Part shown: positions 21,640 to 27,600 of the stretch, piece after piece
Position numbering within the stretch: position 1 is the stretch's first letter
How the letters are laid out: the number at the start of each line of letters is the position of its first letter
From: Oculina patagonica
Taxonomy: Eukaryota
Direction: 5' to 3'
Assembly (NCBI RefSeq): GCF_052425735.1
Contig: NC_135767.1
Span: forward strand, 12,090,001-12,154,000
Length of the DNA stretch: 64,000 nt
Notes under the pieces: model-generated
What the model saw: only the letters and a program-made list of their open reading frames with translations
Told to the model about the DNA's origin: nothing
Databases searched by the model: none
Translations under genes and position numbers: made by a program

Positions 21640-24600
21640 TCAGTCTTTTAAGAATGGAAATCCAGGAGGCTTGGTTGGCCTCGGCCGGACCCCCTCAAAA
21701 GCATCATGGGCTTGGTGAGCTGAAAAGAGATAAAATACAATGAAATAAATTAAAATATACAGGCAATAATATTATTCATACAATAGCATAATGGCAAGAA
21801 AAAAAAAAAAAAGACAAGCAAGGAGGGGGAAGGAAGGAAGGAAGGAAGGAAGTGGGAGGGTGGTAAGGGGGGAAGGATCGTTTCCTTAGTTTCGTGGTTC
21901 CGTTTACTTTAATGAAATATTCAACATGGTTGCTATTCCTCATGTTAAAACTGTAAGTACTATTTCCGCTGTGCCCGCATAATCCGTTATACTCAGAAAC
22001 GTGTGCAGTCTCCACCATCCATAGTATTAAAATGCAACGGGGATATTGGCGACACCGGGGACAGAACTTACAGGACATATTAGAGCAATATATGAATATA
22101 GATGAAATCGACCGCGTTATTATTCCTCTTGGTACAACTGTAAGTGTTGTTTCCACTTTCCACTGGCGAACATATTTTTACCACGACGGGGACAACGGAG
22201 ACACCGGAGACAGGACTTACAGTTTATCAGATATGCATTTATATAAATATATTTATTACATATTTAAATAAATCATATCTTATTAACTGTAAGTAAATAC
22301 TTACAGTAAATAAAATATGAATTATATTAATATCGATAATATATTTATATATTTTTATCTTATGTACTGTAAGTATATACTTACAGTATGTAAGAGATAA
22401 AAGATAAATATATTAATACATTATCTATATTACTAATATAATTCATATCTGATAAACTGTAAGTCCTGTCTCCGGTGTCTCCGTTGTCCCCGTCGTGGTA
22501 AAAATATGTTCGCCAGTGGAAAGTGGAAACAACACTTACAGTTGTACCAAGAGGAATAATAACGCGGTCGATTTCATCTATATTCATATATTGCTCTAAT
22601 ATGTCCTGTAAGTTTTGTCCCCGGTGTCGCCAATATCCCCGTTGCATTTTAATACTATGGATGGTGGAGACTGCACACGTTTTTGAGTATAACGGATTAT
22701 GCGGGCACAGCGGAGATAGCACTTACAGTTGTTTCACGAAGAATAGCAATGGCTTGACTATGGCATATATATATTTTTATTTTGGCAAATCAAGTTTTCC
22801 ACAACTTTCTCGGGTATGGGCACAGGGCAATGACAGATTTCTTAAATGTTAGCACATGCCTACAAGCGCTTCTTTTGTGTCGCGAGAGCCTTGATCATAA
22901 GATAATGTTCCTCGTCACAAAAATACCGAACAAAACAACGTGACAAAACATTACATTCACAAGTTCTATTGGTATACTATTTATAAATAGAAACGCTTCG
23001 GATTTTGAAGAGCCGATTACGTAACGGTTAGCACATTCTTGCAAGCGTTTCTTTTGTTACGCGAGAACTTAAGGTTGCTACAGCTTTGCCTAAGCATGAA
23101 ATAATTTCGTACAAACAAAAGAGCACGAGACAACTAGAATCAACAAGTTTCAGAAGGATATATAAACGTTGTAATAAGACACTTCAGTCACTTGGAGGAG
23201 AGACAAGCATGGCGTCTGTCCCTGCAAGACAGCTTAACAGTAAGGTACGTAATATGTATTTTCTCTGTTACGAGTAGCCATTATGGGTATCGTTAATTTT
23301 CTTGTGTAGATTACCATTCGCCATTTTGAAATTTAACTAAACAGGAAAAGCGAACAACGACTACTTTTTACCAAGAACAGACCTTCTTGCTGTAAAAATC
23401 CGCCATTTTGAAAACTCGGCACACAAGGCACAAACTACGACTACTTATTTCCGAGGATATTTTCTGTATTTAACTATCCGCCATTTTTAAATATAAGTAG
23501 GCTGGGTGAAGAAACGATCACTTGGTGCCAAGAATAGACCTTCTTGCTGTATAAAATCCGCCATTTTGAAAATTCGGCACACAAGGCACAAAGTACGACA
23601 ACTTATTTCCAAAGATATTTTCTGTATTTAACTATCCGCCATTTTTAAATATAAGTAGGACGGATGAAAAACGACCTCTTGGTGCTAAGAATAGACCTTC
23701 TTGCCGTATAAAATCCACCATTTTGAAAATTCGGCACACGAGGCACAAAGTACGACTTCTTATTTCCGAGGATATTTTCTGTATTTAACTATCCGCCATT
23801 TTTAAATATAAGTAGGCCGGGTGAAAAACGACCTCTTGGTGCTAAGAATAGACCTTCTTGTTGTATAAAATCCGCCATTTTGAAAATCCAGCACACAAGC
23901 CACAATAGAAATCTCGCGAAATGCCGTTTGGATGCAAAACTAAAACTCACTTTCTAGAATTTATGCCAAAATGCGTTAAAGCTAAAATTTTTCAAGTTAT
24001 AAATCAGCTTTATTCATACCTTCTTTGCACTATTTCTGAAATCGTTTAATTCCAAAAAGATAAAACGGAAGCACTGTCATTGATAAAACTTCTCCATTAC
24101 TTTTTTTTAATACAGAGTATACGAAGTGCTTTGGTAAGCCGTATTCTTCCAGTTGCATCTACATGCTCTTTAATTTCTGCGAAAGTCTCTTTTCGAAAAT
24201 GTGATGGAAGACCTAATACAAATCCTGATGAGCTCTGGCTTCAAATATGTAGCAAGCGAGACGAGTGTGACCAGGCCATTAAGAATATTCCAGGAATGGC
24301 CTTCTTTTTCTCCGCCGTGTCAGCGGTTGAAAGTAGAGTTAAAAAAGATCCCAGAAACGAAGTAATCGAAGAAGAGGGTGGGGACGCGCCCAATGCCAAA
24401 AAAGTAATCTTTTGGCCCGCTATCTCGTATTGGATTGCGGTGCAGTCACAGAACGGAACGCATGTTTCAACCGTGCCAATTCACTCAGCCCTGCTGGAAA
24501 CAGGAATGGATATTACCGCAAAGATTCTGCCGGACTGCAAGAAGGGTAAAGAAGAAGAATCGTCATCGCCTTTGTGTACGACCTTAAAAGATCACTCCAA

Positions 24601-27600
24601 TGACTACTTGCAGAAAAAAGTAGATCTGTCGTTTGCCCACGGACTGGAAATATTAAGAGATCAATTAATGGAAGAGCCTTTGGGCGAAGCCGTTCACGGG
24701 ACCGAGCATGTTGTGAGATTGCAGGTCATTTCAAATTCATTCTGTTCTACGCTGCGCGACAAGGGAATTCCAGCTCTCATTCGGGCTGGGCTTCGGTTTG
24801 ACGTATATGGCATCGGAGATTGTAGTGTGTCGTCCGTCGACCAAACCTGCACTCAAGCGTTGGCGTCGCCGATAGTGGTCGCTATAAATGACGTCGAAAG
24901 GGCAATGAAAAAGCTTGGCTACGCGCTGTACAAGGGAGAAGTGTACAAAAAAGTTGGCTCTTCAAAGTACACATATCAACATTGCTGCACTGTAAAGAAG
25001 TTTTTGTCGCTCCTCGGCAACAGCGATCACTTCAAGGAGATCGTTATAAAGCATCTTAACAAGCTAGATAGCATACTTGGCGATCCACAGAGTGAGTTTT
25101 CAAATCAACTCAAAATCAACTTCGATTTGATTGAGGTCTCAGATGGGTATTGCTTTTCAGTGAGCAAGAGAAGGTTCGTTGTAAACGCCATAAAAGACGC
25201 AGACGTCGGCAAAGAAACGCCCAGAGCCTTTGTTGATTACAAGCACGACAAAACACCAGATCCAGTTTATTTCAAACAAATTCTTCAAAACAGCCTATCC
25301 GAGTCAGAAATGAAATACTTCTGCGAGTACTACATCAGGTTGCTAAACTGTGGAATCAAGCAGCACAAAGAGAAAGTACTGTGCTTGATTGGCGATCCGA
25401 ACAGCGGAAAAACATCCCTGTTTGCACCCATCACTCGGATAATCCCCGACAGGTAAGTGTGATCAATGATTGATAAGAATACTGGACGCGTAACGTTTTC
25501 TTTGAATTCTATACATTTATGTTGCCCTCAGAATCGAATGTCGCAGCTGTACTGTAACAAAATGTTTTAAAAACCAACCTTGACCTATCAATTGATCATT
25601 TTCTATCGTTTCTTTCTTTTCTATCTTTCTTTACAGATACATCGCCATGATAACAAAACAGAAATCGTTCAACAAAAGCCTAATCGACGAAGACACACAG
25701 ATTATATTCATGGACGAGTGTTACGCCAAGCTGCTGGATCCGGACGATTGGAAGGTTCGTTCACCTAGTTTAACGGGGGTGGTTTTGTTCGCGTCTCGCT
25801 GCGACGTTTTCTTGACATTTTTTCTTTACGTTTTCTTAAGGTTTTCACCCAGGGTGGATTGACAGCGCACGACAGAAAGTACAAGTCTTCTACGCCATTG
25901 ACCGTCCGCTGTCCAATGTTCATTACCTGCCAAAAAGAAATGGATTTTGGCGAAGATCACAACTCAGCGATGAACGTGCGTCTGCGGAAATTCTTTTTCA
26001 AGACCTTGACAACACCACCAGTAGCGGGCGTCATGCAGTATTTAAAAGAGAACGCCATGGAATGCATCGCTTGGGCAAGCAGCGTGGCCGAGACTCCTGA
26101 CGACGAATTGCCTCCGCCAGCTCCTGGCACCGTTTACGAAAACAGCCCGTTTGACGAAACAGAAAAAGAGCGTATCCGAAACTTGAAGATGGACGAGAGC
26201 GAGAGTGACGTCGCCACCGACGTGGACGAAACAGCAGCTCTCGAAAGTGACGAGGAAACCGAGGGAACAGCTAGCGAAGACGAAGGGGGCGCCAAGTGGT
26301 GGGAGAAAAGTCTGGAGGACGTTATCCATCTTCGAGATCAACAGCCAGTCGACAGTTTGAAGGAACGGCAGCTCGGGTTAATAGCTGCTGGGGTAAGACG
26401 TGCCGTTAACGAACGCGAGAGGGAAGCCGTAGAAGCACGAGAACGAGTCTTGGAGGAAACGCGGGAACGCTGGGTATCGCTGGGAATGCTGAGAGAAGAA
26501 CACGCCCACTTGCTCGAGTCCGTCGAAGGGCCTTACCATCCCGAGGTAGAGCGGTCCAGAAATGAGTACTTCGCCAGAAAGAAGGAGGAAGAACAACGGA
26601 CCCTCGAAATCAAAGCTCGCGAGTACTACGAGGATGAGTGGGTCTTGGCGAAAGAGAAGGAACTTCAAGATCTCCAAATGCGAGAAGACACCGCCACGGA
26701 CGTGGAAGTGAAGCGCGCGCTGGAATACATGGTGAACCTCACCGCGGATGCGCTCAAGTCCAGGTTTCAGCGTGAAGAGGTGCCCGGTCTTAGTAAGTTC
26801 GTGCTCCTGGAACGGAAGAGGAAGGCCGTGGAGATGAACTGGTTGTCGCCCCAGCAGGCGGAGCATGTCAAGAGCATATGGTGCCCTCTGCCGTATCCAC
26901 CCCGTGGCGTAGACGACGACTGGTACGAGCAGCAGTTGTTCATAACGCCCTCCACGACAAACGCCAGCTGCCGTCGCTCTCAGACGCCGCGTTCTTCTTC
27001 ACAAAAACGACGATCGCGGAAAACAGGCCAGAGCTCTAGCCAACCGCCGAAGATGGCAAAGATAACGCATTACTTCAGACCGAGTCAGCCGTGAACGTCG
27101 AGACGATTGTTACGTGACGTGTGCGGAATGACTGTGGTAGTGGTCAGTAGTCAGAAACTTAGGCAAACGTTAAATGGCGATGGCGTCGTAGCCAAGTTAT
27201 CTTTATTGCAATTTAAGATAAGTTTTCACATCGAAACTCGCTCAAGTGCATGTACACGGTGTATAATTATCTGAAATAAATGTCATAGCAGTCATGTTGT
27301 GTTGTTAATTAAGCTAGTGGCATTTTCATTCCAGCCCTTTTCTTAAGCGAGTCCGCCGTTCTTCCGTCTTGAAATTTGAAATCGGGATCTCTCAAAATTG
27401 CCGTCCACTGTCCAAACCCGTATCTTTTTAAACCTTTCTTGAGAAAATTGTCCTCTTCTTCCGTGAATTTCAACACCCGGCGATGATTTCGTTGAATTCG
27501 CAATTGTTTTTTGGGAGGGGAGTCCCTTTCAGGAGAGGCGCTCATTGATTCTGTTGTTCCGACAGATTCTGAAATTGTTGAAGTTGTAGCGCTAAACCTC

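Follow-up and report, generated by a model that had tools for sequence, protein, structure and literature searches.

An intron-bearing SF3 helicase gene of the coral Oculina patagonica belongs to a two-gene, capsid-less mobile element with a likely tyrosine recombinase

In 64,000 nucleotides of the coral Oculina patagonica (contig NC_135767.1, positions 12,090,001 to 12,154,000; hereafter the window, whose own numbering is used throughout), a gene for a superfamily 3 (SF3) helicase occupies 23209..27094 on the plus strand, and we find that it is part of a mobile unit of about 8.1 kb. The gene has three GT-AG introns, in phases 0, 2 and 0, and 914 stop-free codons; its exons of 36, 1337, 118 and 1254 nt make 915 codons with the stop, none contains an internal stop, and a stop is impossible in the split codon because that codon starts with AG. 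A TATA box (TATATAAA, 23159-23166) and an initiator-like (Inr-like) motif, TCAGTC (23184-23189), both on the plus strand, precede exon 1 (23209..23244), whose 12 codons are present and 75-92% conserved in all five relatives compared (L070, L139, L141, L147 and L148); TATAAAA also stands upstream of the homologous exon of L148. Intron 1 (23245..24115; 871 nt, phase 0, GTACGT..TACAG) holds a 157-bp repeat in 3.4 copies, at 23373-23905. Exon 2 (24116..25452) encodes a folded N-terminal domain with a conserved KDH motif, a collar, a D5_N-like beta region and Walker A; intron 2 (25453..25636; 184 nt, phase 2, GTAAGT..TACAG) separates these from exon 3 (25637..25754), with Walker B; and intron 3 (25755..25840; 86 nt, phase 0, GTTCGT..TTAAG) separates Walker B from exon 4 (25841..27094), which carries B′, motif C, the Arg finger, an acidic linker, a helical C-terminal domain and a basic tail. 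Retention of intron 3 would shift the frame and stop the protein. An AATAAA (27275-27280, plus strand) sits between this gene and a second, convergent one. The original prediction, made from the letters of the window, had given these intron coordinates, the open frame, the division of the helicase core among exons 2, 3 and 4 and the flanking TATA, Inr and AATAAA signals, all of which hold. Its remark that the last exon is CpG-rich relative to host genes stands in part: the observed/expected CpG ratio of exon 4 (1.17, at 55% GC) clearly exceeds that of the stretch 28001-44000 (0.34-0.84), less so that of six long host open reading frames (ORFs; 0.80-0.99); the window as a whole has 0.94.

Comparison with relatives supports this gene structure. 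The annotated paralogs P0001, P0070 and P0042 align to it exon by exon, with adjoining coordinates; in P0001, which is 37% identical to exon 2, residue 17 marks the start of exon 2, residues 488-526 correspond to exon 3, and residue 527 marks the start of exon 4. L070, L139 and L141 read without interruption and in register across the sites of introns 2 and 3 (the closer relatives are 53-62% identical over exon 2), and L147 and L148 have intron 2 at the same phase-2 site and no intron 3. Since the paralogs adjoin exon by exon and relatives read through introns 2 and 3, these junctions are beyond chance. In other subfamilies the intron positions differ, falling near paralog residues 70 and 175, or near 221 and 408. 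In one clade (8 rows, support 100/99), comprising the five relatives named above with L046 and L049, some members have introns 2 and 3, some have neither, and some have intron 2 alone; because intron presence does not follow the tree there, repeated precise loss or recombination is suggested. Sequencing runs were examined as assembled contigs, which drop rare forms; their RNA status is a guessed label (14 runs) with none recorded as RNA, and X7 and X11 carry template-switch adapters. One X5 contig passes directly from 23244 to the start of exon 2, of which it includes the first 11 nt, as expected if intron 1 is spliced, and one X3 contig ends at the intron 1 donor. In run X2, a long unspliced contig over 24116-25452 has a premature stop in exon 2, so that the X2 signal comes from a copy with a broken helicase.

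The helicase itself has Walker A as GDPNSGKT and Walker B as IFMDE, and these motifs, with B′, motif C and the Arg finger, lie within about 120 aa of an AAA+ fold; the Gly and Lys of Walker A and the Glu of Walker B are kept across 31 diverse relatives. An AlphaFold 2 (AF2) model of P0001, with a mean predicted local distance difference test score (pLDDT) of 78, finds its best match in the SaPI5 primase-helicase (Z 13.3, root-mean-square deviation [rmsd] 4.9, 289 residues aligned), followed by AAV2 Rep40 (Z 13.1), and also matches B19 NS1, vaccinia D5, poxvirus E5 and E1 over residues ~290-610 (Z 11-13); among viral models, the D5 helicases of algal viruses match. Residues 291-610 align to SaPI5 347-667 and vaccinia D5 321-678, and residues ~291-420 overlie the collar and the D5_N-like portion of D5-type helicases, placing both ahead of the ATPase in P0001. 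PF19263 and PF00519 match among the relatives, some over the cut-off. As judged from these motifs and from the paralog model, the gene product is a D5-type SF3 helicase, which bears out the original assignment to SF3. The family has many members: 172 proteins out of 7,998 candidates belong to it, and 310 clusters match at E up to 1e-30. The named hits all come from stony corals, and the paralog that is identical to locus L011 is labelled Oculina patagonica by its source.

Residues ~14-270 form a confidently modelled alpha/beta domain, with the order beta-alpha-beta-beta-alpha-beta, that is conserved down to ~20% identity. Its conserved polar residues are R61, D65, Y142, K194-D195-H196 and R239, the KDH motif being near-invariant (K 30/30, D 29/30, H 27/30). 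The original prediction had described about 350 N-terminal residues without a primase or HUH motif; the region is shorter, at about 260-290 aa, and the rest of the description stands. Residues 1-290 have no conserved DxD of the kind found in archaeo-eukaryotic primases (AEP), and fold searches return no primase-domain row for them; neither HUH nor the catalytic YxxxK of HUH Rep/NS1 proteins appears in alignments A1 and A3; and no catalytic Tyr pattern is conserved in the domain. The helicase core matches D5-type folds, and the N-terminal domain matches nothing named; as to the HUH-derived origin-binding folds with an RRM-like sheet (E1, large T), the large T and Rep68 rows span the domain only at rmsd 12.6 and 21.4. 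Sequence searches of the PDB give no match for A1 and E1 at E 0.02 for A3; PHROGs has no match for four proteins, phage records give the helicase 23 weak primase/helicase rows (best E 0.03), and Rfam gives no match. An origin-binding role for the domain is plausible.

The helicase gene had been viewed as a virus-type gene in its own right; it is half of a two-gene unit. One full copy measures 8,110 nt, and full copies of 7.6-8.6 kb have two long convergent genes, no third long gene, and no capsid, packaging or polymerase gene. In the window copy the ends are sharp, at 21876 and about 28675. Of 75 candidates in the genome, 67 match exon 2, four of them being 100% identical on three contigs, and four copies at least 99% identical lie in unrelated flanks on three contigs; the suggestions that the gene is mobile and was recently active are both supported. 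Copy identity begins at 21876, downstream of a GGAA-rich host tract, and the left end (21873..21890, plus strand) reads GATCGTTTCC from that position, a motif that recurs at 22 left ends in the same genome. AAGGAT (21873-21878) is repeated at the right end of the window copy, and GA is common to both ends of nearly all copies. The right end reads TTTTTGGGAAACG-TTAAGGA (28656..28676, plus strand) and passes into purine-rich host DNA; of 38 matches to it in the genome, 19 reach at least 99% identity over 236 nt.

Just inside the left end lies an imperfect palindrome of 820 bp (21930..22749), with 341-nt arms that are 93% complementary and an AT-rich, branched centre; its minimum free energy (MFE) fold as DNA pairs 94% of the bases. 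It begins 54 bp inside the element and does not pair the two element ends. Ten ACTGTAAG motifs lie in or just beside it, as against 5 in the 57 kb outside the element. Other subfamilies have palindromes of unrelated sequence. We consider the palindrome a likely replication origin. Near the other end, 63-bp tandem repeats rich in GGAAC (28127..28378) raise GGAAC/GTTCC to 14-25 per 500 nt, where most other bins across four full copies have 0-4, and are candidate Myb or arm-type binding sites. As separate observations on the palindrome, T>C differences in runs X2 and X3 cluster at 22025-22643 (21 places in X3), and seven of eight listed sites pair with an A of the opposite arm; the pattern resembles that of A-to-I editing in a hairpin RNA of either strand. 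A search for flip-flop isomers of the palindrome found, in subfamily C, a signal that is mostly microsatellite length, with only a tip of ~30 nt that looks inverted in one of five copies.

The window copy lies within an intron of an eIF4E-family gene, in a GGAA-rich tract and with the host gene antisense to the helicase; one eIF4E-family exon falls in a minus-strand frame at 29694..30014 (Pfam IF4E, E=3.3e-7), and a second, below 21720, is judged from its translation and a likeness to eIF4E3. About 1.3 kb is deleted from this copy at 28119/28127, removing the 5′ half and the start of the second gene. The description of the helicase as still intact applies to its frame, which is open with few private changes, and not to the window copy, which without the start of the second gene cannot supply its own recombinase. 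Past 28119, undeleted sequence follows in contigs from six putative RNA runs and from one DNA-like run. Other derivatives are also deleted: L153 has lost the helicase and kept the second gene intact, and in L041 the helicase is partly lost. One contig (C1839, 8,214 nt), considered as a free circle, has microsatellite on both sides and is an integrated copy.

The second gene, convergent to the helicase, is likely to encode a tyrosine recombinase (YR) of 564 aa. Its 3′ half (about residues 293-564) occupies 27309..28119 on the minus strand and ends in a C-terminal TRF-like Myb domain, closest to TRF1/TRF2. The protein has the order of a YR catalytic set, R-K-HxxR-H/W-Y: R301, K329, H396, R399 and Y435 are kept in 31-33 of 33 regions, and H426 falls within a conserved QKHS motif; we presume catalytic roles for these residues from their order. 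A C-x4-C..H-x4-H pattern is also present. The Atlas gives a lead to PF00589 on 15% of one cluster. At least 100 other PF00589-type matches occur genome-wide, none of the 100 scored being a copy of the element's YR, and phage records contain no match to it. A convergent YR accompanies the helicase at 31 of 36 metagenome loci with room for one, these being a subset of the 80 fetched.

DNA sites add to the case for site-specific recombination. Head-to-tail junctions between copies occur twice in the genome (a reversed control pattern, 0 times) and once in a metagenome contig (L108), and consist of 12-bp inverted arms, GGGAAACG and CGTTTCCC, flanking an 8-bp spacer; this fits the YR site layout quoted in the available text of PMC3212892. 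Purines make up at least 80% of the flank at 22 of 22 left ends and at 14 of 17 on the right; the same holds for 19 of 1806 background 30-mers. Three copies bearing a 63%-identical YR were left out of the count, and two of these three sit in GAT/GAC repeats. A tandem array of several subfamilies (L031-L035) occupies 42.43-42.47 Mb of G000:C4, with some members joined directly at the att-like site and others through a short GAA/GGA tract. On G000:C9, AT-rich DNA splits a YR copy (L155:471-6770). This DNA carries ORFs for an SF1 helicase (657 aa), for a 740-aa protein without assignment and for a VLTF3-like protein, and is possibly a Polinton-like or transpoviron-like insert.

The element is modular. 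L038, L053 and L067 have YR modules and right ends that are 98-99% alike, and their palindromes and helicases barely align; L067 and L069 have hairpin and helicase in common and YRs 78% alike; L063 and L069 have YRs 95% alike and different helicases. Breakpoints lie mostly between the convergent genes, with one inside the helicase tail, and mixed tandem arrays offer a possible route for the swapping. Hairpin and helicase travel together in the subfamilies compared, and it is this linkage, maintained while the YR is exchanged, that furnishes our main argument that the palindrome is the helicase's origin. Between subfamilies, synonymous sites of the helicase are saturated with pN at 0.17-0.30, the intron sets differ too, and the YR has a ratio of nonsynonymous to synonymous change (dN/dS) of 0.10-0.15. 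The proposed dN/dS comparison among copies reveals purifying selection between subfamilies; the four newest copies have dN/dS near 1, with 0-1 synonymous and 1-4 nonsynonymous changes per exon, and differ at too few sites to show selection. Long adaptation to nuclear RNA polymerase II (Pol II), as the original prediction had it, is upheld by the conservation of exon 1, TATA and intron 1 in distant relatives and by saturated synonymous sites at a pN of about 0.2-0.3.

Elsewhere, the window contains three long ORFs, each a single exon, that encode a beta-lactamase-family (serine hydrolase) domain in this animal genome (44472-49792, minus strand, and 55446-57194, plus strand), three tandem copies of a rhodopsin-type G protein-coupled receptor (GPCR; 3967-4986, ~8465-9291 and 16797-17879), the middle one without a long ORF, an array in which a ~204-bp unit recurs about 14 times and a higher-order period of ~1017 bp is superimposed (11383-14366), and a cytochrome P450 gene (59967-63777, minus strand) whose two long frames flank a stretch of N.

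The copies display two genes, defined ends, a palindrome, recent insertion at several sites, a target bias and the exchange of modules. From these, we suggest that the SF3 helicase serves a capsid-less coral element of ~8 kb with two genes, which would be excised as a circle by its likely YR, copied by host polymerases and reintegrated into purine microsatellites; we put the probability of this account at roughly 0.6. The YR would join the element's two ends, forming the site that tandem copies display (GGGAAACG-8 bp-CGTTTCCC) and releasing the circle. The N-terminal domain of the helicase would then bind the palindrome of its own subfamily and the helicase would open it. Papillomavirus E1 and polyomavirus large T recruit host Pol alpha-primase, and, since the coral protein has no primase or nickase motif, we propose a similar recruitment, after which host primase and polymerases would copy the circle. 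The TRF-like Myb domain may steer the YR to GGAA/GAA/GGA tracts, with reinsertion at GA in purine repeats, and recombination within tandem arrays would reassort the origin and helicase with different YR modules. The introns may be an ordinary by-product of expression by Pol II in the nucleus, having come and gone in the course of a long history. A bolder version is tentative, and we hold it somewhat more doubtful than probable: the element would represent a new class in animals, an integrative coral plasmid with a swappable replicon and integration module, replicating as a papillomavirus-like nuclear circle, with retention of intron 3 as an on/off switch. In this version the replicon would pair a hairpin origin with a spliced SF3 initiator-helicase that has a new N-terminal DNA-binding fold, and the integration module would be a YR fused to a telomere-type Myb domain by which the microsatellite target is set.

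Several observations weigh against excision, copying and reintegration as we propose them. No end-to-end circle junction appears in the contigs of 8 runs (contigs, again, drop rare forms). Introns 2 and 3 are spliced in no contig of seven putative RNA runs and kept in several, so that the junction reads originally called for are limited to the one spliced contig for intron 1; intron 3 is retained in contigs of X1, X2, X3, X7 and X11, among them a sense-strand X7 contig with a template-switch tag. SF3 motif C usually has Asn, and the coral helicase has Gln at that position, with Asn in distant relatives. The N-terminal domain has no assigned fold and draws no name from Pfam, PDB or Atlas searches, and the palindromes of some subfamilies are just 70-78%. 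An intact YR beside a deleted helicase in L153 indicates that the helicase may be dispensable in cis, and 5 of the 36 metagenome loci have no YR. The YR has no Pfam, PHROG or NCBIfam match; its AF2 model has a pLDDT of 44, with a single XerA row at E 1.6 and only the Myb part usable, and hhalign against host YRs gives a probability of 2.3% (E 0.02, better than 5 shuffles). With profile and fold support this weak, the YR assignment rests on motif order and DNA sites.

An alternative is a route through single strands, in which helicase action would peel one strand off the integrated copy, a hairpin would form at the palindrome, and this folded strand would be the YR's substrate for integration, so that no double-stranded circle need replicate. 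Integration of folded single strands is known from CTXphi-type elements and integron cassettes; the coral hairpin is very stable at 94% pairing, a circle has not been seen, and the rows for AAV Rep68 and SV40 large T extend over the N-terminal domain, a hint of a Rep-derived fold. We nevertheless think this route unlikely, because no HUH or catalytic Tyr motif is conserved, the palindrome lies 54 bp inside an end and leaves the ends unpaired, the att-like junction has the layout of a double-stranded YR site, and clean flip-flop isomers are absent among the copies. The same low standing falls to a satellite that replicates solely when a large DNA virus or a Polinton-like virus (PLV) infects the host and supplies it with priming or capsids, as SaPIs and transpovirons depend on helpers. 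The closest folds are those of SaPI5, poxvirus and algal-virus D5 helicases, near-identical sequence appears under several organism labels, and the insert with SF1 helicase and VLTF3-like genes interrupts a YR copy in L155; in addition, PLV end modules combine an inverted repeat, a primase-helicase and a YR, according to the available text of PMC11296320. Against this, the spliceosomal introns, TATA and AATAAA indicate expression by host nuclear Pol II, none of 205 pattern matches in viral contigs is a relative, and a packaging gene is absent.

Less probable still is that the helicase is a relic in what remains of an endogenous virus, Polinton-like or parvo-like, whose capsid genes are gone and whose movement is now purely passive. 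Its virus-type character, the many broken copies and the dN/dS near 1 of the four newest copies could be read in that way, but such a ratio is expected of fresh copies after insertion, selection between subfamilies is purifying, and the same sharp-ended, two-gene layout is found genome-wide and at the 31 metagenome loci. The canonical promoter, introns and poly(A) signal would also suit an ordinary or domesticated single-copy host gene, an explanation refuted by the near-identical copies in unrelated flanks on three contigs, the tandem arrays, the deletion derivatives and the position inside another gene's intron.

If the account of a YR-excised, helicase-copied circle is true, its significance would lie mainly in a problem posed by Cryptons. 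Excision and reintegration alone conserve copy number, which makes copy gain by Cryptons a puzzle, and a YR element with its own helicase and origin would be a directly testable answer to it. As a minimal animal replicon, the element would also bridge transposons and PLVs. It brings to light a large unannotated SF3 family whose folded N-terminal domain has no assignment, and it provides a natural set of genes with and without introns in the core of a single enzyme. Its recombinase, moreover, seems to change simple-repeat target from one lineage to another.

Among known systems, the initiators of small DNA viruses resemble the coral helicase in architecture. Papillomavirus E1, polyomavirus large T and parvovirus NS1-Rep join origin binding and an SF3 domain in one chain, as the coral protein putatively does, their helicase folds match at Z 9-13, and these initiators are products of spliced nuclear expression. 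The coral collar and beta region are closer to D5 and SaPI, its N-terminal domain has no Pfam match, there is no capsid, and integration would be by YR. Helitrons and Replitrons, whose transposase is an HUH Rep with or without a Pif1 helicase, are excluded by the lack of an HUH motif, the SF3 fold and the YR. Endogenous nimaviruses, in the available text of PMC10871703, show YR-linked insertion into simple repeats with a target that follows the integrase family; their YRs typically have an N-terminal C2H2 finger, and the coral YR shows a C-x4-C..H-x4-H pattern. Nimaviruses are very large virus genomes, whereas the coral element has two genes. The end modules of PLVs offer a closer likeness, with an inverted repeat, a D5-like SF3 helicase and an adjoining YR that are exchanged as a mosaic (PMC11296320, in the portion available). 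Polintons and PLVs have capsids, a packaging ATPase, terminal inverted repeats (TIRs) and genomes of 14-40 kb; the coral element, at 8 kb, lacks capsid, packaging ATPase, protease, PolB and a recognisable primase, and has spliceosomal introns and microsatellite targeting.

The closest counterparts of the integration module are the Cryptons. Like them, the coral element has a YR, no reverse transcriptase, no long TIR or long terminal repeat (LTR), and a short common terminal motif, and it inserts, as CryptonV does, into microsatellites of a cnidarian. CryptonV is described as a cnidarian, YR-encoding, microsatellite-specific element in the part of PMC8869645 available to us, which cites Kapitonov and Jurka (2012, Repbase Reports 12:2034), and is listed in PMC5753468. 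The likeness is one of structure and target. That description mentions a YR only; the coral element has in addition an SF3 helicase whose gene contains introns, a long palindrome, a YR fused to a TRF-like Myb domain, and modules that are swapped. CryptonF, A, I and S share a YR with a fused DNA-binding domain, a short terminal motif and a proposed circle model (PMC3212892, PMC9977147); in the text of PMC3212892 at hand the word helicase is absent and the extra proteins named are peptidases, and in that of PMC9977147 active Cryptons gain copies beyond what excision alone would give, by a mode called complex. Our literature search, which extended to neither subscription journals, Repbase Reports nor supplements, found no Crypton with a helicase. 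The coral element probably functions as a Crypton would if coupled to a replicon of the PLV or plasmid type.

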